DNA of 64,000 nucleotides from the IMG/VR virus record IMGVR_UViG_3300045988_144476. The stretch is one strand, 5' to 3'. Under the pieces are notes generated by a model. It did not search any database. It worked only from the letters and a program-made list of their open reading frames with translations, and was not told where the DNA came from. The translations under genes were made by a program, and so were the position numbers. This stretch comes from a virus. This document shows, in pieces, positions 5,006-19,660 of the stretch; positions within the stretch are counted from its first letter, which is position 1; every line of letters starts with the position of its first letter.

Positions 5006-5762
5006 TTTAGATGTATATACAACAGGAATGCAGAAATCACTTAATGATAAATTGTTCTTTGTAGATAAAGTTGATGGTATAGACAGAATTGTTGATTTTG
5101 GTTGCGCTGATGGAGCATTTCTCAGAGAGATGTATAAAGTAAATCCTGATATTAATTATGTTGGGTACGACAATAATGTCAATATGCTTATTGTTGCTCA
5201 AAGTAAAACTGATTTTGATAAATACAAAACAATTATTTATACCGCACAACTTGGTTCATTAGATGATAATAAATATAGTTTATTAAATCTTTCGAGCGTA
5301 ATTCATGAAGTGTATTCATATTCTCAACCAGATGAGATTAACACATTCTGGAATAATGTACTTTATCAAAATTATAAGTATATTGCAATCAGAGATTTTT
5401 GTATTAGTAAATCGATTAGTAGACAGTCCGATATTAATGATTATACAAAAGTAATTCAAAATGCTGATAAAGAACAAATAGATGAATATGAATCTATCTG
5501 GGGATCATTAAGAGAGAATAGGAATTTAGTTCATTATTTAATGAAGTACAGATATACAGAAAACTGGAATAGAGAAGTACGTGAAAACTATTTCCCTATT
5601 ACATTAGAAACACTTTTGAGTATGATTCCAACATATAAATATGAAATTATTTATTTTAAAGATTATATTCTTCCTTTTACAAAGAATAAAGTAAAAGAAG
5701 ATTTCGATGTTGACCTTCATGATAATACTCATGTAAAGATTTTACTTAAGAGGAAAGATTAA
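4983..5762 (+). CDS. Class I SAM-dependent methyltransferase-like protein
   Basis: 259 aa. Motif I-like IVDFGCADGAF followed by an acidic residue at VGYDNN. Substrate unknown. Confidence 0.65.
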   Translation: MMMQKINNLDVYTTGMQKSLNDKLFFVDKVDGIDRIVDFGCADGAFLREMYKVNPDINYVGYDNNVNMLIVAQSKTDFDKYKTIIYTAQLGSLDDNKYSLLNLSSVIHEVYSYSQPDEINTFWNNVLYQNYKYIAIRDFCISKSISRQSDINDYTKVIQNADKEQIDEYESIWGSLRENRNLVHYLMKYRYTENWNREVRENYFPITLETLLSMIPTYKYEIIYFKDYILPFTKNKVKEDFDVDLHDNTHVKILLKRKD

Positions 5763-6373
5763 TGGATAGTAGAAAAGTACGAATAAAATATTTATGTGAA
5801 TTACCAGAATATTTACATGCATATATTAAAAGTTTTGCCGGAAAAGTTGGAATAATTACAGAAATTATAATTGACGCAGAAAAAACAATCTACCAAATTG
5901 ATTTAGGCGGTGGAGTAATAATACAAGCAGAAAAACAATTTTTTATTTTTATAAATGAAGAGGAGAATGAAAATATGGCAGCATTAACAGGATACGCAGC
6001 AGTAGCAGTAATTGAACAGGGATGTTATAACAAAGAATATTATTATGCAATTTATGCAGATGGTTATAATTATAAAGTTGGAGATAAAGTACTTGTATCA
6101 AATACTAATGATATTTGGACTATTAAAAGACTTTTAACAGTTCAGCAGGCGGCAGAAGAACATAAAGCTGCTATTACTGCAGAAGTTGTAGCTCATGTAG
6201 ATAATTCAGCATATCTGAAAAGGGTTGAACAGCGCAAAGAAGCTGCGGCTATTAAAAAGGATATGGATAAAATTATCAAACAAATGGATGAGCAAATGAA
6301 ATATGATATTTACGCAGAAGAAAATCCTGAGCTTAAAAAGATGCTTGAGAGATATAGAGAGCTGAAAGGTTAA
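5762..6373 (+). CDS. Hypothetical protein (203 aa)
   Basis: ATG overlaps the previous stop (TAATG). An internal GAGGAG+ATG at MAALTGY could give a shorter product. C-terminal charged helix. Confidence 0.6.
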   Translation: MDSRKVRIKYLCELPEYLHAYIKSFAGKVGIITEIIIDAEKTIYQIDLGGGVIIQAEKQFFIFINEEENENMAALTGYAAVAVIEQGCYNKEYYYAIYADGYNYKVGDKVLVSNTNDIWTIKRLLTVQQAAEEHKAAITAEVVAHVDNSAYLKRVEQRKEAAAIKKDMDKIIKQMDEQMKYDIYAEENPELKKMLERYRELKG

Positions 6374-6377
6374 TATA

Positions 6378-6533
6378 ATGAGTGATATAATAAGAATAGG
6401 TATTTGTAGTTTATGCTATTGCGGAATATTGACTTTATCTGGTGTAAAAATTGTAAATAAAAAATACTTTGCTATTTTGGCATTATTAATTATTCAAGCA
6501 GTAGTGTGGGGAACATGGGGAATGCAATCATGA
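6378..6533 (+). CDS. Small membrane peptide (51 aa)
   Basis: Below the track cut-off: MSDIIRIGICSLCYCGILTLSGVKIVNKKYFAILALLIIQAVVWGTWGMQS. AAAGG RBS. Stop overlaps the next ATG (ATGA). Confidence 0.45.
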   Translation: MSDIIRIGICSLCYCGILTLSGVKIVNKKYFAILALLIIQAVVWGTWGMQS

Positions 6534-7267
6534 TTTGGATTACAGGTGATACTCATGGGGACTGGGTTCATAGATTAAATATGAACTCTTTCCCGGAACA
6601 AAAAGAAATGACAAAAGATGATTATGTAATTATTTGTGGAGATTTTGGTATTTGGAACGATACTCCGCAGCAGCGATGGAATTTAAGTTGGTTAGAAGAA
6701 AGAAATTTCACTACATTATTTGTTGATGGTAATCATGAAAATTATGATTCACTTAACACATATTCAGTGTCTGAATGGCATGGAGGTAAAGTACATTTTA
6801 TTAAACCATCAGTAATACATCTTATGCGAGGACAGATCTTTAATATAGAATATAGAACATTTTTTACATTTGGTGGAGCACGAAGTCATGATATTAAAGA
6901 TGGTATTCTTGAAATAGATGATCCACGAATAAAATCATGGAATAAAGATCCAGATAAGATGTATCGAATTAATCATGTATCCTGGTGGGAAGAAGAAATG
7001 CCAAATGAAAAAGAAATGGCTGAAGGAAGAGAAAATTTAGAATTAGCTGGGAATAAAGTTGATTTTATTATTACTCATTGTGCCCCATCATCTACTCAGG
7101 CTATATTGAGCGGTGGATATTATGAGCCGGATAAACTTACAAAGTATCTTGAGAGTATAAAATGTGGTGTAGATTATAAGACATGGATATTTGGTCATTA
7201 TCATATTGATAAGTCGGTTACAAGTAAAGATATTTGTTTATTCGAACAGATTGTGAGGATTAATTAA
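6530..7267 (+). CDS. Calcineurin-like metallophosphoesterase (Ser/Thr phosphatase-like)
   Basis: Carries GDTHGD, GDFG, GNHEN, THCAP and GHYH motifs. Start placed at ATG 6530 (ATGA coupling); GTG 6506 or ATG 6515 remain possible. Confidence 0.85.
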   Translation: MIWITGDTHGDWVHRLNMNSFPEQKEMTKDDYVIICGDFGIWNDTPQQRWNLSWLEERNFTTLFVDGNHENYDSLNTYSVSEWHGGKVHFIKPSVIHLMRGQIFNIEYRTFFTFGGARSHDIKDGILEIDDPRIKSWNKDPDKMYRINHVSWWEEEMPNEKEMAEGRENLELAGNKVDFIITHCAPSSTQAILSGGYYEPDKLTKYLESIKCGVDYKTWIFGHYHIDKSVTSKDICLFEQIVRIN

Positions 7268-7269
7268 AT

Positions 7270-7473
7270 ATGGATAATGATATAAAAGAATATTTAATGT
7301 ATGTAGAAGATAATTTAATGAAGAAATATAACATCACTCAAGATTTATCTCGGAGAATAATTTCAGAATCTTATCTTCCTGATTCAATAATTAAATTTCC
7401 AGAGAAATGCTTACATGAAGATATAGAGACAGTTACTGATATTATTTATCATGATTATTTAGAGGGAGTATGA
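7270..7473 (+). CDS. Hypothetical protein (67 aa)
   Basis: ORF in operon context. Stop overlaps the next ATG. Confidence 0.55.
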   Translation: MDNDIKEYLMYVEDNLMKKYNITQDLSRRIISESYLPDSIIKFPEKCLHEDIETVTDIIYHDYLEGV

Positions 7474-7721
7474 TGAATCGAGTAGAAAATTTATTATTAG
7501 ATTATGGATACGATGGAGTTGTATATTTTACAAACCCTTCATATGAAAGAGCTTTTCTTGGAGTATCAACAGATGATAGAGCAATTTATGATTTTGATCT
7601 TATGGTCGAATCACTTATGGAAGAAGAAGGAATGACAGAAGAAGACGCTGCAGAGTGGATAGATTATAATTGCTCTTATTATTTTGATGGATGTCCAATT
7701 ATTATGCATAGATTGGAGTAG
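7470..7721 (+). CDS. Small acidic protein (83 aa)
   Basis: ATGA-coupled and D/E-rich (EEEGMTEEDAAEW). No motif recognised. Confidence 0.6.
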   Translation: MMNRVENLLLDYGYDGVVYFTNPSYERAFLGVSTDDRAIYDFDLMVESLMEEEGMTEEDAAEWIDYNCSYYFDGCPIIMHRLE

Positions 7722-7752
7722 AATATGAATTATTTTATTAGAGGTGAATTAA

Positions 7753-8109
7753 TTGCCAAAACGTAACCAAGGATATTTTAGAGAACAAAGATTAAGAAGT
7801 ATTGAAAGACGTAAAGAGATTATTAGACAAAATGGTAGTTGTATTAGACCTTTTGAACCTTTAAATGATCCTAATTTTAAAGAAGGAACACTTGCTAAAG
7901 GACATAATGGATATTGCGGTAATGCCGGAAGAGCAGTTAAAACAAATAGACGTAAAGGACATACTACATACCGACATAAGGGTGCATATGGTCCGGCAAA
8001 TAATTATTCAAGACATGATAAGCAGCAGGTTGAAGATGGAGTACAGCAAATTAAAGAATGGGAGAATGAAGATGGAAAAAGAGAAAAAGAAAGTTTTGAT
8101 TGTAATTGA
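7753..8109 (+). CDS. Basic protein (118 aa), unknown function
   Basis: TTG start 7 nt after GAGGTG. R/K/H-rich. 3' end overlaps the nicotinamidase start by 38 nt. Confidence 0.5.
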   Translation: MPKRNQGYFREQRLRSIERRKEIIRQNGSCIRPFEPLNDPNFKEGTLAKGHNGYCGNAGRAVKTNRRKGHTTYRHKGAYGPANNYSRHDKQQVEDGVQQIKEWENEDGKREKESFDCN

Positions 8110-8632
8110 TATGCAGAATGATTTTGTTTATGGACCACTTGGAACACCAGAAGCACAAGCTATTGTTCCTAATGTGATGGAAAAAATTGCCGATTATAAA
8201 AGAAATAACTGGCCTATATTATATACGAGAGATACACATTATGAAGATTATCTGGATACACAGGAAGGAAAGAAACTTCCGGTACTACATTGTATCCGGG
8301 ATACAGAAGGATGGCAAATCATTCCTGAGATTAATCCATATGAAAATTGTTTTATTTTTGATAAGAACACATTTGGGAAATATAACTGGGAATTAGAAAC
8401 TTGGCTTGATGGTAAATATGCAAGATATGATATTGAAATCATTGGTGTTTGCTTAGATATTTGTGTAATTTCAAATGCTCTTATTCTTAAAGCAACTTTT
8501 CCAGAAAATGAAATTACAGTAGATGCTAGATGCTGTGCGGGATCAACGCCTGAAAAACATAAAGCAGCATTAGAAGTAATGAAGAGCTGTCAGATTAATG
8601 TGATTGGAGAGTTAGGAGAATTAAATAAATGA
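8072..8632 (+). CDS. pncA: Nicotinamidase (isochorismatase fold)
   Basis: Track ORF 7865..8632 trimmed to ATG 8072 (GGAG 7 nt upstream). Carries VLIVIDMQNDF, the PncA-type metal pattern RDTH...LPVLHCIRDTEG, and catalytic Cys in GVCLDICV. Confidence 0.8.
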   Translation: MEKEKKKVLIVIDMQNDFVYGPLGTPEAQAIVPNVMEKIADYKRNNWPILYTRDTHYEDYLDTQEGKKLPVLHCIRDTEGWQIIPEINPYENCFIFDKNTFGKYNWELETWLDGKYARYDIEIIGVCLDICVISNALILKATFPENEITVDARCCAGSTPEKHKAALEVMKSCQINVIGELGELNK

Positions 8633-9474
8633 TAAAAGTAAATAATGAATTAATCAAACCAGAATATTTTCCGGACGGTACCATGAAATTAAAATATGAA
8701 CGTGATCATGAAAGCGGGAGGTTTGGATACTTTGATATAAAATGGCTTTATGATAATGAAGAAGAAATGATATTGCTTTATTATCTCGTAAATCAAATAC
8801 GTAATAATATTTCTAAACCAACCATTAATTTATTCATGCCATATATTCCAAATGCAAGATTTGATAGAACAAAAAATAAAGAAGAAGTGTTTACATTAAA
8901 ATTTTTCTCTAATTTTATTAATGATTTGCATTTCGATCAAGTAATAGTATTTGATCCTCATTCACATGTATCGGAAGCATTGATTAATAATATTGTTATT
9001 GAACATCCGATACATACAATTGTTAAAGCAACAGAAAGAATTACTAATAATTTAAATGATTTACTTTTATTCTTTCCGGATGAAGGAAGTACAAAAAGAT
9101 ATCAGGAAGTAATTGAAACATTTTCAAATTTTCCATATGCATTTGGTATAAAGAATAGAGATTGGGTTACAGGTGAAATCATAGAACTATCTGTGAATGG
9201 CAAAGTTGATCAGATTAGAGGTAGAGATGCGTTTATTATTGATGATATCTGTAGCAAAGGCGGCACATTTTATCATAGCGCAAAGAAGCTGAAAGAGCTT
9301 GGAGCAAAGAATATTTATCTTTATGTAAGCCATTGTGAAAATAGTATTTATGATGGTGAATTATTAAAAGCGAGTAATAATGATTTAATCAAACGCATTT
9401 ACACAACTGATAGCATTTTAACTAATCTTGAAAGTCATAAAATTGAGTTAGTAGAAGAATGGAGAAAATTATGA
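8629..9474 (+). CDS. Ribose-phosphate pyrophosphokinase (Prs) homologue; candidate ADP-ribose diphosphokinase (Adps-like)
   Basis: 281 aa. Carries FPDGT, PYIPNARFDR, VFDPHS, PDEGSTKR and the PRPP-type loop FIIDDICSKGGT. ATGA-coupled on both sides. Confidence 0.8.
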   Translation: MIKVNNELIKPEYFPDGTMKLKYERDHESGRFGYFDIKWLYDNEEEMILLYYLVNQIRNNISKPTINLFMPYIPNARFDRTKNKEEVFTLKFFSNFINDLHFDQVIVFDPHSHVSEALINNIVIEHPIHTIVKATERITNNLNDLLLFFPDEGSTKRYQEVIETFSNFPYAFGIKNRDWVTGEIIELSVNGKVDQIRGRDAFIIDDICSKGGTFYHSAKKLKELGAKNIYLYVSHCENSIYDGELLKASNNDLIKRIYTTDSILTNLESHKIELVEEWRKL

Positions 9475-9827
9475 AACCAATCGTAAATCCTTGGATTGTA
9501 TATTTCGCTCATTTATTTAGTAATATTCAAATGCTATTTACAATTCTTTTATTGGCAAGTGTAAGTGTTTTGGTTATCAGTTTTATTTCTGAATTTGATT
9601 TTATAAATTCCGATAAGATAGGTAAATTTATAAAAATATTAGTCATTATTATAAGTGTATCTGGATTGGTATTAACATTTATTCCAGATAAAGAAACCGT
9701 TTATACAATGATCGTATTAGATCAATTGACAGAAGATAATATTAATTCAATAGGGAAAACCGGTAAAGACGTAATTGATTATGTAACAGATAAAATCGAA
9801 GCTTTAGAGGAGAAAGATAATGAATAA
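9471..9827 (+). CDS. Membrane protein (118 aa, 2 TM) between the Prs-like and NAMPT-like genes
   Basis: Start taken at ATG 9471 (overlaps the Prs-like TGA; GGAG 6 nt upstream). Two hydrophobic helices and an acidic tail. Confidence 0.6.
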   Translation: MKPIVNPWIVYFAHLFSNIQMLFTILLLASVSVLVISFISEFDFINSDKIGKFIKILVIIISVSGLVLTFIPDKETVYTMIVLDQLTEDNINSIGKTGKDVIDYVTDKIEALEEKDNE

Positions 9828-11292
9828 TACATTAGCAATTTTATTAAGTGATACTTATAAGCAAGTTCACCATAATATGTTCCCGGAAGGTCTTACAAAA
9901 CTTGTATCTTATTGGACCCCAAGAAGATCTATGTTAAAAGAACAGAATGAGATGGTATTTTTCGGGCTACAGGCATTTATTAAAGAATATCTTATTGGAG
10001 TATTTAATGATAATTTCTTTAATCTTGTATTAGGCGAAGTTGCCGGAAGATATATAGATGCTATGGATACACAATTAAACGCAGATGATTATGATTATAA
10101 TCCAATTATTGAATTATATTCTTTAGGATATCTCCCAATTCAGATTCGTGCTCTACCTGAAGGAACATTAGTACCAATGGGTGTTCCATGTATTGAAATT
10201 ACAAATACTCATCCAGATTTTGCCTGGGTGGTACAGTGGATTGAATGTATCTTACAGGTTGAACTTTGGAAGCCTTGCTGTCATGCAACAATTGGTCATA
10301 TGTACAGAGAGGCTGCAAACTATTGGTATAACAAAACAGTTGAAAATAATGTAAAACCTTCAATGGCAGCCTCTGATTTCGGCATGAGAGGAATGTCATG
10401 TATGACTGAAGCTGAAAGATGTTCTACGGCATGGCTGCTGTCATTTGATAAGACAAGTACTATACCAGCAATTGATTATATCGAAAAATATTATCATTCT
10501 AATTGTAAAAACCTTGGGATTGGACTTGGTGCCGTAAGTACAGAGCATAGTGTAATGGCCTCTAATTTTGCAGTTGATGGCGATGAAATTACTTTTGTAA
10601 AAAAACTTCTGACAGAATTATATCCAGACACTTCATTCAGCATGGTATCTGATACATATGATTATTGGAATATGATTAATAACATTCTTCCTGCTTGCAA
10701 AGAAGAAATCATGAATCATAATGGTAAGCTTCTTGTAAGACCAGATTCTGGAAATATGGTTGAGATTTCGGTAAAAACTATTGAGAAACTTTGGGAGATA
10801 TTTGGTGGTACTACAAATAGTAAAGGCTATAAAGTACTTGATCCTCATATTGGAATTATTTATGGTGATGGCTGCAGTTTAAATAATGTGAATGAAGTTT
10901 GGAGTCAACTTGAGAGTAAGGGTTTTGCTGCAAATAATATTGTATTTGGCGTAGGAGCATTTTGTTTCTCTGCAATTGTCGAAAAAGATGGTCATATGGT
11001 AGTAGTTACTAGAGATACTTTTGGTATTGCAATGAAGGCTACATATGGTGTTGTAAATGGTAAACCAATCATGATTTATAAGGATCCGAAAACAGATACA
11101 TCTCATCTTAAAAAATCTCATAAAGGCTGCTGCCTGGTGTATAAAAGATATAATTATGAGAACAAGTTAGATTGTGATGATGGATATGATGAAATTCAGT
11201 ACGGTGGTATGTTACATACCGTGTATAAAGATGGAGTTCTTATGAAAGATGAGTTCTTTGAAGATATCCGGAACAGATTGAATGAGGTATAA
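9820..11292 (+). CDS. Nicotinamide phosphoribosyltransferase (NAMPT/NadV) homologue; candidate nicotinamide ADPR-transferase (Namat-like)
   Basis: 490 aa. Carries DFGMRGMS, STEHSVM, VRPDSGN, IIYGDG and FGVGAF, in the order seen in NAMPT. GAGGAG RBS. Confidence 0.85.
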   Translation: MNNTLAILLSDTYKQVHHNMFPEGLTKLVSYWTPRRSMLKEQNEMVFFGLQAFIKEYLIGVFNDNFFNLVLGEVAGRYIDAMDTQLNADDYDYNPIIELYSLGYLPIQIRALPEGTLVPMGVPCIEITNTHPDFAWVVQWIECILQVELWKPCCHATIGHMYREAANYWYNKTVENNVKPSMAASDFGMRGMSCMTEAERCSTAWLLSFDKTSTIPAIDYIEKYYHSNCKNLGIGLGAVSTEHSVMASNFAVDGDEITFVKKLLTELYPDTSFSMVSDTYDYWNMINNILPACKEEIMNHNGKLLVRPDSGNMVEISVKTIEKLWEIFGGTTNSKGYKVLDPHIGIIYGDGCSLNNVNEVWSQLESKGFAANNIVFGVGAFCFSAIVEKDGHMVVVTRDTFGIAMKATYGVVNGKPIMIYKDPKTDTSHLKKSHKGCCLVYKRYNYENKLDCDDGYDEIQYGGMLHTVYKDGVLMKDEFFEDIRNRLNEV

Positions 11293-11294
11293 AA

Positions 11295-11555
11295 ATGTTT
11301 GGTAATTTATTCAAATCTGAACAAAAGACATTAATTAAAGAGGAAACATTAAAAGATAAACTATGGAATGATAATGATGTCATTTTATTTATAGCTAAAC
11401 ATAATGCATTATCTTTAAATAAAGATGATTATTCTTTAAATGATTTAAAAAGAATCAAAATAGCTTCTGAAATAGATAATCAAAATAAAATTAATAGACA
11501 TAAATACGAGTTAAATAAAATTTTTGACACATATAAACAAATGGAGGATTTATGA
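11295..11555 (+). CDS. Hypothetical protein (86 aa)
   Basis: ORF in operon, 2 nt after the previous stop. Confidence 0.55.
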   Translation: MFGNLFKSEQKTLIKEETLKDKLWNDNDVILFIAKHNALSLNKDDYSLNDLKRIKIASEIDNQNKINRHKYELNKIFDTYKQMEDL

Positions 11556-11992
11556 GTAAAACAATAATACCAAAAGATGCAGCTTGGTTATTTCAGAATC
11601 CAGAAGATATTGCGAAAACTATGGGTGGTATTCTAAGAAATATCGAAGCACGAGATTCAAGAATCAAATATCTCGAAGAAGAAAATAAAAAGCTTAAAGA
11701 TGAAGCATTTAAAGACGAAGAATTAAAAAGGATGCAAGAAAAACTTAAACGAACTTCTGATGCATTAATGAACAGTTTTCAGATATCAAAAAAAGAATGG
11801 GATAAAATTCATGAATGGAAAAAACAGCATGAAGCGGATGTGCATGGACTACATACTTTAAAAGAAAGAATATCTGCACATGGAGCTGCGGGTGGTGGTT
11901 ATTCATATGAGTTTCATCCAACAAGCATTGTAACCTTTGGAAGTGTTGTATGTGATAGATGTGGAGCAAAATTTCAGTTTCAGGAAGATTAG
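11552..11992 (+). CDS. Hypothetical protein (146 aa) with coiled coil
   Basis: ATGA-coupled. Central K/E coiled coil. C-terminal VCDRCGAKF half zinc-ribbon. Confidence 0.6.
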   Translation: MSKTIIPKDAAWLFQNPEDIAKTMGGILRNIEARDSRIKYLEEENKKLKDEAFKDEELKRMQEKLKRTSDALMNSFQISKKEWDKIHEWKKQHEADVHGLHTLKERISAHGAAGGGYSYEFHPTSIVTFGSVVCDRCGAKFQFQED

Positions 11993-11999
11993 GTGATTT

Positions 12000-12767
12000 A
12001 TGACAATAGAAGAGATTAAAGAAAAAATTAAAACTGATCCAGCGTATGAATTTCTTCGTACAAATTCTCATCTTAGTGATAATATTTGTCTTCTATATTT
12101 AAGTGGCAGCTATGCTTATGGAACAAATGTAGAAGATAGTGATATTGATTTGAGAGGTGTTGCTTTAAATAGCAAAGAGGAAATTCTTCTTGGACAGGAT
12201 TTTAGAAGCATTACAGATGGAAGTACAGATACAACAATTTATTCATTTAAGAAGATGATTAAAATGCTCTGTAGTAATACTCCAACTGCTATTGAGATAT
12301 TTGGTCTTAAGTCGGAGCATATTTTATATGCTAATTCAATAGGAAAAGAATTATTAACTAAACAAGATATGTTTCTTACTAAAAGAGTTGGTCCGGCTTT
12401 TTGTGGATATATCAAAGATAGCTTAAAGCTGCTTGAATCAGAAAAATGTTTGAATGATAAAACTAAGATGGCTAAATATATGGTTCATCCAGTTAGATTA
12501 TTTTGTATGATCATGGATATTTTAGAAAAACAAAAGGTAGTTACATATCGTGAATGTGAACATGAAGAACTTATGGACATCCGTAATGGTAAATGGCTTG
12601 AAGATAATAAGCCTTCTAAACCTTATATGTATTTTATGAATGATTATGACAAAATAATTAAATATCTTCTTCAAGAAAAATATCTTCCTAACGAATTAAA
12701 TCAAGTTGCTATAGATGATTATGTAATATCAGTACATGAGAAAATAGTAAAAGGAGAAATTAAATGA
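12000..12767 (+). CDS. Pol-beta superfamily nucleotidyltransferase (RlaP-like)
   Basis: 255 aa. Carries GS-x9-DxD signature LSGSYAYGTNVEDSDIDLRGV followed by a helical C-terminal domain. Confidence 0.7.
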   Translation: MTIEEIKEKIKTDPAYEFLRTNSHLSDNICLLYLSGSYAYGTNVEDSDIDLRGVALNSKEEILLGQDFRSITDGSTDTTIYSFKKMIKMLCSNTPTAIEIFGLKSEHILYANSIGKELLTKQDMFLTKRVGPAFCGYIKDSLKLLESEKCLNDKTKMAKYMVHPVRLFCMIMDILEKQKVVTYRECEHEELMDIRNGKWLEDNKPSKPYMYFMNDYDKIIKYLLQEKYLPNELNQVAIDDYVISVHEKIVKGEIK

Positions 12768-13288
12768 TCAACATATATAATGGAAGCATTTTAAATGCTA
12801 GAACAGATTTCATTATGCACCAGGTGAATTGTCAAGGTGTAATGGGATCCGGGGTTGCTAAAGTGCTTAGAGATTTTAATGAGGGTATTTACGATCATTA
12901 TAGAGCCAGATATGAATTTCAAAAATTACATAATATTCCTCTACTTGGGAGTAATGATTATTATTGGTTAGAAAATCATAATAATCAACAATGTATTGTC
13001 TCAATGTTTGCTCAGGATAAATATGGCTATGATGGTAAACAGTACACAAATTATGAAGCCTTTAAAACTTGTTTGAGACAATTTAAAGCTGACTGGCCTG
13101 CATGGGTAGAAGATATAGATGCTGATAATAAGAAAATTTTGAGAAGAACAACAGTGTCACTTCCTTATTATATAGGATGTGGCAGAGGCGGTGGTGATTG
13201 GGAGGAAATACTTGAAATAATTACTACTGAACTTGTCGATTATGATATAGAACTGTGGAGGTTAAACGTATATGATATGCGAGGATAA
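12764..13288 (+). CDS. Macro domain protein (ADP-ribose binding/hydrolase)
   Basis: 174 aa. Carries NARTDFIMHQVNCQGVMGSGVA and a second Gly loop YIGCGRGGGDW. ATGA-coupled to the NTase. Confidence 0.8.
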   Translation: MINIYNGSILNARTDFIMHQVNCQGVMGSGVAKVLRDFNEGIYDHYRARYEFQKLHNIPLLGSNDYYWLENHNNQQCIVSMFAQDKYGYDGKQYTNYEAFKTCLRQFKADWPAWVEDIDADNKKILRRTTVSLPYYIGCGRGGGDWEEILEIITTELVDYDIELWRLNVYDMRG

Positions 13289-13649
13289 TATTCTTCTTCC
13301 AGATGAGAGCGATTTAATACGTAGAAATATACAATTATCAGAACGTCTTAATCATGCTTGTGATGAAATTATAAGTCTTCAAAAAGAAAACAAGAGACTT
13401 AAAGAAATTCTTGAACAACTTGATTATAATCATGTTGAGAGAAGAGTTATAGATATAAAGGTTGAATATGATTTTATGGATCCTAAGTTTAAACATATAA
13501 AACTGAAAGATTCTAAAACAATTGAGCAGAATTTATACATAGATTTGTTTAATAGGTTTAATAAAGATGAAGGGTTTAGAAAGCTTACTGTTAAATGTAC
13601 TGATATAACTGATAAATTGGAGAAATTAAATGAAAAAGATAAAGATTAA
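13272..13649 (+). CDS. Hypothetical protein (125 aa)
   Basis: ORF overlapping both neighbours. Has a coiled-coil segment. Confidence 0.55.
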   Translation: MICEDNILLPDESDLIRRNIQLSERLNHACDEIISLQKENKRLKEILEQLDYNHVERRVIDIKVEYDFMDPKFKHIKLKDSKTIEQNLYIDLFNRFNKDEGFRKLTVKCTDITDKLEKLNEKDKD

Positions 13650-14001
13650 ATATTTAATTCTAGTTTTGGCTGTATATATTTTAGCAATATCTTTAACTGG
13701 ATGCAAAAAGTGTGTTGAGAAATTTGATTCTACAGTACAGGTAGAAATTGTAAACGAATATTATAAACCGAAACAAATTAATTATTATATGGATTCAAGA
13801 GGTCGTCTCAAAAGAGAATGGGATTACGCTGAATATGAAATTATAGTCAGATATGATGGAGTTGAATATTCACTTATGGACGAATCTACATATAGAAAAT
13901 ATCATGGCAGAATTGGAGAAAAAGTCCAGGGTATTTTGAGAACTAAGAAATATGATGACGGATCAGTTAAAGAACGGATTATTGGATTAGGAGGAATGTA
14001 A
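13630..14001 (+). CDS. Putative lipoprotein (123 aa)
   Basis: Signal peptide with lipobox LAISLTGC. Confidence 0.65.
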   Translation: MKKIKIKYLILVLAVYILAISLTGCKKCVEKFDSTVQVEIVNEYYKPKQINYYMDSRGRLKREWDYAEYEIIVRYDGVEYSLMDESTYRKYHGRIGEKVQGILRTKKYDDGSVKERIIGLGGM

Positions 14002-14189
14002 TGCGTAATTTTAATTTTAAAATTGTTACAGATATTTCAGTCATTGTATTAAGCATCATAGGTGTAGTTTTCAATTTTGTAAATTGTTTTCTAGGAGGAG
14101 AAAAAGATGCACTTATGATCGCACTTCTTTTTATACTTATTTTAATGGATAATATTGAGCTTTTAATTGTACATATGGAGGATGAATGA
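14001..14189 (+). CDS. Small membrane protein (62 aa)
   Basis: Two hydrophobic helices. Start overlaps the previous stop. Confidence 0.5.
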   Translation: MRNFNFKIVTDISVIVLSIIGVVFNFVNCFLGGEKDALMIALLFILILMDNIELLIVHMEDE

Positions 14190-14464
14190 TGAAAAAAAAT
14201 ACTTTAGAAAATATTGGAGCTATAACGGTTATAGTTAGCTTAATTACATTTTTGGTTATTTTACCGGCACTTACATTTGCTTTTGCTTATGTTGGTGGAA
14301 TGATTATTAATTTCTTTGTTGGTGAAGGATTAGTAAAAGGTTTAAACCTTATGTTTAATACTACTAGATTTACTAGAGAGATGATCCCACTTACATGTGC
14401 AACACTTGCAACTATTGGCAGATATTTTAAATCAAGTACAACAACTAATTCTAAGGAGAAATAA
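14186..14464 (+). CDS. Membrane protein (92 aa)
   Basis: ATGA-coupled. Two TM segments. Confidence 0.55.
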   Translation: MMKKNTLENIGAITVIVSLITFLVILPALTFAFAYVGGMIINFFVGEGLVKGLNLMFNTTRFTREMIPLTCATLATIGRYFKSSTTTNSKEK

Positions 14465-14466
14465 GT

Positions 14467-15264
14467 ATGGATTATTATTTTAATGCTAAAAAAGTAAAAG
14501 ATGATTGTGTACAGTGGATACGAGATTATTTTAAAGAGAATGGTCCAATGTGTAATGCTGTAATTGGAATTTCTGGAGGAAAAGATTCTTCTGTAGTAGC
14601 TGCACTTTGTGTAGAAGCTCTTGGAAAAGATAGAGTAATTGGAATCATGATGCCACAGGGTAAACAGGCTGACATTGGATATTCAGTAATGCTTTGTGAA
14701 TTCCTTGGAATTGATAACTTCTGTCTTAATATTGAAGAAGCTTATAAATCAATTCGAAGTCAGGTTAAAGAGACACTTAATGGACATTTTAGTCAGCAAA
14801 GTGCTATAAATATGCCACCTAGATTAAGGACAGTAGTAGTACGTACATATTGTCAGAATTTAAATGGAAGAATGGCGAATACATCGAATCTTTCAGAAGA
14901 TTATGTAGGTTATTTTACCATTGATGGGGACGATCGTGGAGACTTTGCTCCACTTGCAAATCTTACAGTTGGTGAAGTAAAAGCTATTGGTAGAGAGCTT
15001 GGATTACCAGAAGAATTGATTGAGAAAACACCTATTGACGGGCTTTGCGGTAAGACAGATGAAGAGAATCTTGGATTTACATATGATGTTCTGGATAGAT
15101 ATATTCGTACCAGAGAAATTGATGATTTAGAAGCTAAAAAGAAGATTGATTATCTTCATGAAAAGAATGCTTTTAAATTAAAAGAGATGCCAAAATTTAA
15201 ATATGTTTCTGATGAGTTTACAAAGGCAGTAGAAAAAACAGTCGAAGAATTATTAAGGAGATAA
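14467..15264 (+). CDS. nadE: NH3-dependent NAD+ synthetase
   Basis: 265 aa. PP-loop GISGGKDSSV. Length and overall layout match NadE. Confidence 0.88.
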   Translation: MDYYFNAKKVKDDCVQWIRDYFKENGPMCNAVIGISGGKDSSVVAALCVEALGKDRVIGIMMPQGKQADIGYSVMLCEFLGIDNFCLNIEEAYKSIRSQVKETLNGHFSQQSAINMPPRLRTVVVRTYCQNLNGRMANTSNLSEDYVGYFTIDGDDRGDFAPLANLTVGEVKAIGRELGLPEELIEKTPIDGLCGKTDEENLGFTYDVLDRYIRTREIDDLEAKKKIDYLHEKNAFKLKEMPKFKYVSDEFTKAVEKTVEELLRR

Positions 15265-18279: not shown

Positions 18280-18478
18280 TAGAACGGAATTATTACAGAA
18301 TACTTATTTAACACCAAAAGACATTCAAGAACATTTACAGATTGGTAGAGATAAAGCTTATGCCTTATGTGCATTAAAAGGTTTTCCAGCAATTAAAATA
18401 GGTTCATCTTACAGAGTAGATCCGATTAAGTATAATGCCTGGCTGGACAAACAGTCAGGAACACATATATATATATAA
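18266..18478 (+). CDS. Excisionase-like helix-turn-helix DNA-binding protein
   Basis: 70 aa. GTG start 5 nt after AAGGA. LTPKDIQEHLQIGRDKAYAL...IKIGSSYRV resembles excisionase/MerR-type HTH. Convergent with int. Confidence 0.6.
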   Translation: MILCDRTELLQNTYLTPKDIQEHLQIGRDKAYALCALKGFPAIKIGSSYRVDPIKYNAWLDKQSGTHIYI

Positions 18479-18480
18479 GA

Positions 18481-18511
18481 AGAAGCAGAGTTAATCCTCT
18501 GCTTCTTTTTT
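18481..18511. terminator. Bidirectional hairpin between the xis-like gene and int
   Basis: agaagcagag-ttaatc-ctctgcttct followed by ttttt. The stem overlaps the last int codons. Confidence 0.55.
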
Positions 18512-19660
18512 GTTATTATTAAAAATTGAAATTGCATTTGATTTCTGCTCAGGAATAATATGGATGTATATATTATATGTAGTTTGTATATCTTTATGCC
18601 CCATAAGCTCACTGACAACTTTTATATCTACTCCATTACGAATAAGCTCTGATCCGAAACTATGCCTTAAATCATGCGCTGTAGCAGCTTTATTTGAGCA
18701 ATCACCAATTTCAAGAAGATTAGCGAGAGTCCGGTTTACATTACGTCTTTGTATAGGTGTGCCAACGGTACTTACAAATACAAGATCGTTATCAGAATGA
18801 GGATAGTTGTTATAGAAAAACATTACAATATCATATGCTATATCTGATAATGGTACATAACGCTGGCTAGATTTTCTCTTAGGAGTTGTATGGTCCAGAA
18901 TATACTTGTTGCCACTTTTATTACGATTTTTTATCTCTGGAGCATTTTCCGTAATAAATATAGTACGGTCTTTAAGATTTACGTTTTTCCACTTAAGAGC
19001 AATAAGTTCACTGATTCTCAGACCAGTGTGAAGTAAGAAGACAATTACTTTGGAATTGTTTCCATATTTATAGTATTCTTTTGTTTTCATCTTCATGTCA
19101 GCAAAATTCTCTAGTTTCTTACGATCTTCTGTGGTTAAGAATATCGGCTCTCGTGTTTTCTTTGTAACTTGCTCTTCAATAGGAAGCTTTACTTCTTCAA
19201 GAGGATTATTGAGAATATATTTCTTACGCTTTGCAAAATTGAATATCTGATTAAGAAGGGCTTTGTTCTTACGAATACTGTTCATCGGGAGCCATTCAGC
19301 CCAGTTATCAATATAAGACTGAACATGTTCATCTGTAATTGTATGCATCTGCATTGTGTTAATAGTATATCCATTGTCATACTTAAGAACATTCTGTACA
19401 AAATACTCATAGCCATCATAAGTAGTATTCTTGACTTGCTTCTTTTTAGATTTCAGCCATTCTTCAGCCACATCATCTAAAGTCTTTTGTTCTTTTGGTA
19501 GTTCTTTATTCTCATCTTTCCATTTCATGTATTTTAGCTTTGCAGCTTTCTCAGTTTTACCGTAAAAATCTTTTCCTTCAGGGGATCTGAATCTCTTGTA
19601 AGTAATACCATTAATCTTTTTTGTTCCCCATGAGCCTTCACCATTACGTCTTTTTGCCAT
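18491..19660 (-). CDS. int: Tyrosine site-specific integrase
   Basis: 389 aa. Carries TGLRISE (Arg I), HDLRHSFGSELIRNG (HxxR), LMGH and a terminal Tyr in YIHI. N-terminal SAM-like domain. Confidence 0.92.
   Translation of the reverse strand: MAKRRNGEGSWGTKKINGITYKRFRSPEGKDFYGKTEKAAKLKYMKWKDENKELPKEQKTLDDVAEEWLKSKKKQVKNTTYDGYEYFVQNVLKYDNGYTINTMQMHTITDEHVQSYIDNWAEWLPMNSIRKNKALLNQIFNFAKRKKYILNNPLEEVKLPIEEQVTKKTREPIFLTTEDRKKLENFADMKMKTKEYYKYGNNSKVIVFLLHTGLRISELIALKWKNVNLKDRTIFITENAPEIKNRNKSGNKYILDHTTPKRKSSQRYVPLSDIAYDIVMFFYNNYPHSDNDLVFVSTVGTPIQRRNVNRTLANLLEIGDCSNKAATAHDLRHSFGSELIRNGVDIKVVSELMGHKDIQTTYNIYIHIIPEQKSNAISIFNNNKKEAED

Follow-up and report, generated by a model that had tools for sequence, protein, structure and literature searches.

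Depletion of nicotinamide adenine dinucleotide (NAD+) is a strategy central to bacterial immunity, and a handful of phage pathways that counter it are known, namely NARP1, NARP1-AP, NARP2, and NARP3. In NARP1, Adps makes ADP-ribose pyrophosphate (ADPR-PP) and Namat joins ADPR-PP to nicotinamide (Osterman et al. 2024, bioRxiv 10.1101/2024.02.11.579819); structures have been solved for both Namat (PMC12774641) and Adps (PMC13586617). NARP1-AP, described in a January 2026 preprint, combines Adps and Namat with the Poa1p-like macro-domain phosphatase Adpp and counters aRES; a macro gene is present in 15% of NARP1 operons (bioRxiv 10.64898/2026.01.28.702374). NARP2 consists of NAMPT and a nicotinamide mononucleotide (NMN) adenylyltransferase (NMNAT). 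The Preiss-Handler route proceeds through PncA, PncB, NadD, and NadE, and jumbo phages carry classical pncB-nadD-nadE clusters (PMC11662467). The locus considered here lies in a viral stretch of 64,000 nucleotides (nt), IMG/VR record IMGVR_UViG_3300045988_144476 (the window), which at 8072-15264 features an island encoding PncA, an Adps-like Prs homolog, a Namat-like member of the NAMPT family, an RlaP/Pol-beta nucleotidyltransferase, a Poa1p-like macro domain, and an NH3-type NadE (Table 1). The island is probably an extended NAD+ reconstitution operon directed against NAD+-depleting host immunity, one that runs through the deamidated (nicotinic acid) branch.

The balance of evidence also leans, somewhat less firmly, toward the Ser/Ala-type Namat of this island being a nicotinate ADP-ribosyltransferase, a new activity, which with PncA, Adps, and NadE would constitute a fourth NAD+ reconstitution pathway ("deamido-NARP1") bypassing PncB and NadD. 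Defense NADases would split NAD+ into nicotinamide and ADP-ribose (ADPR) or ADPR-1''-phosphate, the latter being predicted to be returned to ADPR by the macro phosphatase. Adps is predicted to pyrophosphorylate ADPR at the expense of ATP, yielding ADPR-PP and AMP; PncA would deamidate nicotinamide to nicotinic acid and NH3; the variant Namat, with Ser213 replacing the nicotinamide-binding Asp, would join nicotinic acid to ADPR-PP to give nicotinic acid adenine dinucleotide (NaAD) directly, with release of pyrophosphate; and NadE would perform the last step, the amidation of NaAD to NAD+ with NH3 and ATP. These four genes would make a closed pathway needing neither PncB nor NadD, in which the ammonia from PncA would formally equal that consumed by NadE and the net cost over NARP1 would be one extra ATP.

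As in the Preiss-Handler route, the first and last enzymes are present and NaAD is the predicted point of convergence; unlike that route, Adps and a nicotinate-using Namat are predicted to stand in for the steps of PncB and NadD, with ADPR instead of phosphoribosyl pyrophosphate (PRPP) and ATP as the predicted source of ribose and adenylate. No PncB homolog was found by phmmer among the open reading frames (ORFs) of the window, and no such Pfam or NCBIfam match among those of the island; the outcome was the same for NadD, although its phmmer query, an E. coli sequence, makes this the weak half of the test. NARP2 differs from the island in that Pfam and NCBIfam scans of the island ORFs returned no NMNAT-type protein, nor NadM or NadR, and in that the enzyme present is of the Namat type.

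A preliminary description of the window had named five enzymes of this island, all of which were recovered by family searches on the plus strand at the positions it gave, and had reported the lack of PncB and NadD noted above. From this it had concluded that the host would have to supply the middle steps and that PncA would compete with the NAMPT-like enzyme for nicotinamide. The first conclusion is probably wrong, with Adps and Namat most likely being the middle and making NaAD directly; the second assumes a nicotinamide-specific enzyme, and the window Namat is without the nicotinamide-recognizing Asp. With Adps and Namat as the middle and PncA feeding the NAMPT-like enzyme, both puzzles would be removed; the earlier interpretation is partly right, in that the genes are a real co-conserved unit, but probably not one that depends on the host and competes with itself. 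It had also been held that this combination had not been described as one unit; three of the five enzymes are in fact a published unit, because Adps with Namat is NARP1 and the addition of the macro domain makes NARP1-AP, while no description of its extension by PncA and NadE turned up in the literature examined. The NARP papers examined mention neither PncA or nicotinamidase nor NadE, and they do not name nicotinic acid among the substrates or NaAD among the intermediates; the link of PncA and NadE to Adps and Namat looks new.

The Namat-like protein carries the central claim. Its 387 bits against the Namat structures 9w5x/9w5w compare with ~203 bits against human NAMPT, and its nearest structures are the Namat entries 9w5x and 9ke8. 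In the crystal structure of the Namat from SPbetaL1, nicotinamide is stacked between Phe189 and Tyr15' and hydrogen-bonded by Asp215; the pocket is completed by Arg192, Ala242, Arg306, and Asp13', and the D215A mutation lowers NAD+ synthesis 8.1-fold (PMC12774641). In human NAMPT the residues H191, G217, D219, and Y188 form one hydrogen-bonded wall, of which Asp219 is reported to be a determinant of substrate specificity (Khan et al. 2006, as cited in PMC7096376). The window enzyme retains the catalytic core (Y13, F187, R190, H243, R307, and D309, equivalent to Tyr15, Phe189, Arg192, the catalytic His, Arg306, and Asp308 of SPbetaL1); however, it departs from NARP1 in the pyridine pocket, where Ser213 occupies the column of SPbetaL1 Asp215 and human Asp219, Ser240 that of SPbetaL1 Ala242 (human A244), and the H191/G217/D219 wall is replaced. 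Other changes relative to human NAMPT are S185 for His191, K211 for Gly217, W205 for His211, and G237 for Ser241; with H300, these complete the list of altered pocket residues. The D219S mutation reportedly lets human NAMPT use nicotinic acid.

These replacements are a property of a clade. Across the Ser/Ala enzymes, which comprise the S-type group of the window and an A-type sister group, the changes D219 to S/A, A244 to S, H191 to A/S/G, G217 to K/N, H211 to W, and S241 to G are essentially fixed, with stacking and catalytic residues retained, and they are absent from 78 Asp-type enzymes. The Asp219 column holds Asp in those 78 D-type Namats, Glu in five others, and Ser or Ala in all 102 surveyed enzymes of the Ser/Ala clade; every Namat linked to PncA and NadE has Ser or Ala at this position, and Val is found in one distant relative. 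The Glu-bearing Namats, from Lak-type megaphages, have the remaining pocket wall intact and neither PncA nor NadE beside them. S-type and A-type Namats share ~50% identity, compared to ~42% with the D-type. The human case concerns the same alignment column, and there too loss of the Asp is the change linked to altered pyridine specificity; it differs in being an engineered mutation of a PRPP-using enzyme, while here the replacement is natural, clade-wide, and in an enzyme of the Namat type. As an amide-recognizing carboxylate is lost, hydroxyl and basic side chains are gained, and PncA and NadE are constant companions, use of nicotinate is the simplest reading of this pocket.

Many Namat-family representatives (P0002-P0150; also L441, 8001-10379) are 550-1100 amino acids (aa) long and align to the query in two to four segments, and P0026 has an HNH endonuclease/AP2 insertion at the Namat N-terminus; this suggests that the gene is frequently invaded by inteins or homing endonucleases.

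The gene context was surveyed in three sets of viral loci, seeded by the window NadE, by the Namat relatives nearest the window, and by the relatives nearest the canonical SPbetaL1 Namat; genes were called by iterated profile searches, Namats were typed by the residue aligned to human NAMPT Asp219, and counts use loci with at least 4 kilobases (kb) of flank on both sides. At the 59 Asp/Glu-type loci, PncA and NadE were never found, with Adps in 58, a macro domain in nine, and the nucleotidyltransferase in two; the 87 Ser/Ala-type loci have PncA in 86, NadE in 87, Adps in 86, the macro domain in 65, and the nucleotidyltransferase in 24. The near-constancy of PncA and NadE sets the window clade apart from canonical NARP1, and the earlier view of the genes as one co-conserved unit holds for PncA, Adps, NadE, and the macro domain, and fails for the nucleotidyltransferase. 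Scans of DNA for the pocket motifs yielded at least 111 S-type and at least 118 A-type Namat-bearing contigs (at least 229 IMG/VR contigs), and PncA, Adps, and NadE were present in 37/37 of the motif-seeded contigs with at least 3.5 kb of flank. An exhaustive protein search placed S, A, or V in the Asp219 column of 49 of the best 150 representatives at 50% clustering; eight divergent ones were looked up, and NAD_synthase was adjacent in all six that lie on informative contigs, with an isochorismatase and a Prs-like gene in 5/5 of those with upstream sequence. A D-type control locus had the Prs-like gene only, with no isochorismatase or NAD synthase. Set against the 2045 of 50,697 phage records that have NAMPT/Namat, NadE and PncA are rare, with 48 and 11 records.

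PncA lies upstream of Adps in most loci and downstream of NadE in L001 and L107-L120; the gene order varies between subgroups, and therefore the linkage has been maintained through rearrangement. Bare back-to-back PncA-Adps-Namat-NadE cassettes are found in Lachnospiraceae metagenome-assembled genomes (MAGs). The same nicotinamidase-Prs-NAMPT-hypothetical-NadE cassette is present in phage phAss-1 (L121, OQ749652.1 96860-101298), where it was annotated but not discussed; this phage, of a code 15 clade, recodes TAG, and the cassette adjoins a large array of tRNA genes, a suppressor tRNA among them. A divergent Ala-type cassette (L440, 128-4614) consists of Prs-like, isochorismatase, Namat-like, and NAD synthase genes; it comes after the gene of a 276-aa protein in which an NrtR winged-helix domain is recognized (30.7 bits against a cut-off of 27) and seems to be a bacterial chromosomal, regulated copy because a 900-aa chemoreceptor gene adjoins it. 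NrtR responds to ADP-ribose.

NadE-seeded loci without Namat provide a second line of evidence, as these have a genuine PncB (PF04095 and PF17767) directly upstream of NadE; PncB and the Ser/Ala-type Namat are mutually exclusive among the surveyed loci, and NadE in these phages always follows a nicotinate-using transferase. The PncB-NadE cassette of gut phages (L006, 8660-13544; also L002, L005-L017, L036, and L037) has a NadE 46-63% identical to that of the window and, unlike the window, no Adps or Namat; these cassettes need a host NadD because they have no Adps. A 202-aa Nudix protein follows NadE in the L005-L017/L036 group, a macro domain lies ~3 kb from NadE in most of these loci, and PncA is also present in L002, L008, and L037.

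The Adps-like protein falls under the cut-off of the Prs family TIGR01251 (103 bits versus 113); it scores 140 bits, at 36% identity, against the validated SPbetaL1 Adps, compared to 74 bits against the best true Prs in the PDB. Its residues R77, H111, D151, K175, and D205/D206 are kept in at least 97% of 176 homologs and correspond to Arg87, His121, Asp161, Lys185, and Asp212/213 of the Adps from ICP1, as matched by conserved motif and not by structure. Conservation of these catalytic and acceptor residues and of the Namat catalytic core is shared with NARP1, as is the arrangement of the two genes, which lie on the same strand and are parted by a single ORF.

The macro protein, which has no Pfam match as a single sequence, gave, as a homolog profile, a full-length match to yeast Poa1p (6LFQ, 2.4e-20; also 6LFU), an ADPR-1''-phosphate phosphatase, and a match to BT1257 (3e-23); its phage homologs are annotated as phosphatase or Appr-1-p processing proteins. 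As in NARP1-AP, a Poa1p-like macro domain shares one operon with Adps and Namat and fits the description of Adpp; in contrast to NARP1-AP, the macro domain is far more frequent in this clade, is combined with PncA and NadE, and in the window is parted from Namat by three ORFs.

Several considerations weigh against the proposed pathway. Nicotinate use by the variant Namat is inferred from sequence and gene context, and its use of ADPR-PP, the action of NadE on NaAD, and the role against defense are likewise inferences of the analysis. The Ser/Ala enzymes are one clade, and the locus counts are therefore not independent; the association of PncA and NadE with Namat may trace to a single ancestral event. 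Two of the three locus sets, those seeded by NadE and by the window Namat, were chosen in a way that favors the association; the motif scans and the look-ups of representatives are less biased. The deamidated route costs an extra ATP for no evident advantage; speculatively, a host nicotinamidase may remove nicotinamide anyway, charged nicotinate may be retained in the cell, or the irreversible NadE step may pull the pathway forward. The second-best PDB match of NadE is the NMN synthetase of F. tularensis. Furthermore, alignment shows an altered adenine selectivity clamp, the element defining ADPR-PP use, in the Ser/Ala clade: an insertion of 9-10 aa lies in the clamp-helix region (10960-10990, Namat residues ~383-392), where Tyr396 of SPbetaL1 is located. 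All Ser/Ala-type enzymes carry the insertion, which neither Asp-type Namats nor human NAMPT have, a further difference from NARP1; the Phe392-equivalent aromatic is retained, Tyr396 is displaced, and Arg40 gives way to Met in S-type enzymes but is kept in A-type ones. The case for ADPR-PP use comes mainly from the constant presence of Adps nearby. Finally, at one locus (L092) PncA and NadE accompany an A-type enzyme, yet no Adps lies within 8 kb. There, at 5040-9503 of a 235-kb viral contig, PncA, an AAA ATPase, and NadE are found with an A-type enzyme of the NAMPT family in which the human-217 position is still Gly; it may be a nicotinate transferase that uses PRPP, or else an intermediate form.

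The last two points bear on the strongest alternative, in which the altered enzyme is an analog of PncB that converts nicotinic acid and PRPP to nicotinic acid mononucleotide (NaMN), host NadD makes NaAD, and phage NadE finishes; the Prs-like protein would supply PRPP or be unrelated, and the island would be a phage-boosted Preiss-Handler route rather than one of ADPR recycling. Besides the remodeled clamp and the locus without Adps, this fits the activity that canonical Namat retains with nicotinamide and PRPP in vitro and the precedent of other phages, which use PncB with NadE and must rely on host NadD. It is nevertheless unlikely: the Prs-like gene is nearer to validated Adps than to Prs and all but constant in the clade, the transferase is far nearer to Namat than to NAMPT and keeps the Phe392-equivalent aromatic, the linked Poa1p-like ADPR-1''-phosphate phosphatase makes sense only with ADPR as the substrate, and one copy of the cassette stands behind an NrtR-type regulator. 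Even a PRPP-based reaction would converge on NaAD and NadE.

A second alternative, near to the view of the preliminary description, takes the island as two independent modules, a canonical nicotinamide-using NARP1-AP beside PncA and NadE genes that boost the opening and final steps of the host Preiss-Handler route, with the Asp change irrelevant to the substrate. The ordinary family assignments of all components and the occurrence of NadE and PncA in other phages without Namat are compatible with such a division; however, the Asp is invariant in the D-type Namats (Glu aside) and replaced in every enzyme linked to PncA and NadE, a substitution at a position where D215A cripples the canonical enzyme and which is accompanied by simultaneous change of several other pocket residues. 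PncA would in addition starve Namat of its substrate, and neither PncA nor NadE is found at any canonical NARP1 locus, which makes the two-module arrangement distinctly improbable.

NadE itself is assigned with a wide margin (TIGR00552 168.7 bits, cut-off 63.65; PF02540 3e-49); it has the SGGxDS ATP loop (GISGGKDSS) and no glutaminase domain. Its nearest structures are P. horikoshii NadE (2E18) and, second, the F. tularensis enzyme (3FIU, 1.3e-30), which is an NMN synthetase. It could thus be asked whether the window NadE converts NaMN to NMN as in Francisella, with NAD+ completed by a host NMNAT or an RlaP-like enzyme, for which the nucleotidyltransferase inside the window operon might be cited. 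This is very improbable: the best match is a P. horikoshii NadE, the archaeal-type short form that has been tested, from M. jannaschii, is NaAD-specific and without NMN synthetase activity, no NadM, NadR, or NadD was found in the cassette, RlaP is absent from ~72% of the loci, and Adps would be left without a role. The RlaP nucleotidyltransferase was also considered as the missing NaMN/NMN adenylyltransferase and rejected, since no NadD/NadM-type match was obtained for it and no more than 24 of the 87 loci have it; it is part of the window operon but only loosely linked, and is not a constant member of the unit.

PncA aligns over its full length to the P. horikoshii nicotinamidase 1ILW/1IM5; the catalytic triad D13/K98/C131 and the metal ligands D54/H56/H73 are present and kept in at least 97% of 100 homologs. 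Of the NCBIfam equivalogs, both PncA (NF008623) and BiuH (NF050097) scored far below their cut-offs. The gene has a GGGAG 7 nt before its ATG at 8072 and overlaps the Adps gene by 4 nt. Nicotinamide inhibits sirtuins, and the preliminary description had raised relief of Sir2-like enzymes as a purpose for PncA; that it removes nicotinamide for such regulation, of a Sir2-like or ADP-ribosyl-transferring enzyme, and not for NAD+ synthesis is hardly credible, as neither a sirtuin nor an ADP-ribosyltransferase accompanies the cassette in the window or the surveyed loci, the constant NadE and the pocket changes would be unexplained, and relieving the inhibition of a defense SIR2 NADase would harm the phage.

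Table 1. Genes of the NAD+/ADPR island, in window coordinates
Feature	Position	Strand	Length (aa)	Family evidence
PncA nicotinamidase	8072-8632	+	186	PF00857, E 2.8e-35
Adps-like Prs homolog	8629-9474	+	281	Adps similarity
Intervening predicted membrane protein, overlapping Adps and Namat	9459-9827	+	122	No family match
Namat-like NAMPT-family transferase	9820-11292	+	490	NF006629, 461 bits
Two small ORFs, the second a coiled-coil protein with a C-terminal zinc ribbon	11295-11992	+	86; 146	Sub-threshold matches only
RlaP/Pol-beta nucleotidyltransferase	12000-12767	+	255	PF10127, 2.3e-13; phrog_388, 2.3e-36
Poa1p-like macro domain, equivalent to Adpp of NARP1-AP	12764-13288	+	174	Homolog profile
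Four small ORFs: coiled-coil; lipoprotein-type signal (LTGC); two membrane proteins	13272-14464	+	125; 123; 62; 92	
NH3-dependent single-domain NAD synthetase NadE	14467-15264	+	265	TIGR00552, PF02540

From PncA to NadE, the island comprises 13 ORFs in the same direction, each overlapping the next or lying no more than 7 nt from it. The promoter scan of the window performed below chance (76 found versus 99 in shuffles), and the sole convincing terminator lies outside the island; the operon boundaries therefore rest on gene spacing. This terminator, at 18477-18510, is a strong bidirectional hairpin-like element of 14 pairs at the convergent junction of the long plus-strand block and the integrase gene. 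Among the smaller genes of the island, the membrane protein between Adps and Namat has homologs at the same position in close relatives only, and the coiled-coil/zinc-ribbon ORF recurs in close relatives. The four ORFs at 13272-14464 have no family match where scanned, are found in close relatives only, and lie outside the conserved core; three of them (13630-14464), between the macro gene and NadE, are of envelope type and seem odd passengers for a metabolic operon. A calcineurin-like metallophosphoesterase (6506-7267; PF00149, 2.3e-11) lies ~0.8 kb upstream of PncA, and its homologs or Metallophos genes are near the cassette in many relatives (e.g., L020, L023, L026, L043, L202, L441, and L442) as well as near a canonical NARP1 pair (L446).

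The window is from a temperate phage or prophage, with ribonucleotide reductase, dUTPase, endolysin, and tail genes and an integrase (18491-19660, minus strand); no tRNA genes were found in it. Megablast of the island against the 50,697 phage records returned no match. The nearest genomic copies are in a prophage within a 499-kb scaffold of the cultured Ruminococcus sp. AM36-2AA and in contigs of Lachnospiraceae MAGs; the Ruminococcus prophage (L202) has the same gene order as the window, nucleotidyltransferase included. Giant ORFs of 2413, 2658, and 1929 aa, together with a 1074-aa ORF without a PHROG match, occupy 30510-61775 on the minus strand; a crAss-like origin was considered from the giant ORFs and dropped, since the nearest genomic relatives are Ruminococcus/Lachnospiraceae prophages.

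The Ser/Ala-type cassette is common in human-gut Lachnospiraceae/Ruminococcus phages and prophages, and it seems to occur also in bacterial chromosomes under an NrtR-type regulator. If the proposed pathway is correct, the direct synthesis of NaAD from ADPR-PP would be a new reaction and the cassette a counter-defense route by way of nicotinic acid. The enzyme would be a natural substrate switch of the NAMPT fold at a specificity determinant already known to medicinal chemists, and counts of NARP1 made from the adjacency of Adps and Namat would mix two systems that differ in their biochemistry. Phages of the human gut carry the variant in abundance, and in that setting the conversion between nicotinamide and nicotinate by the microbiome matters for host NAD metabolism.

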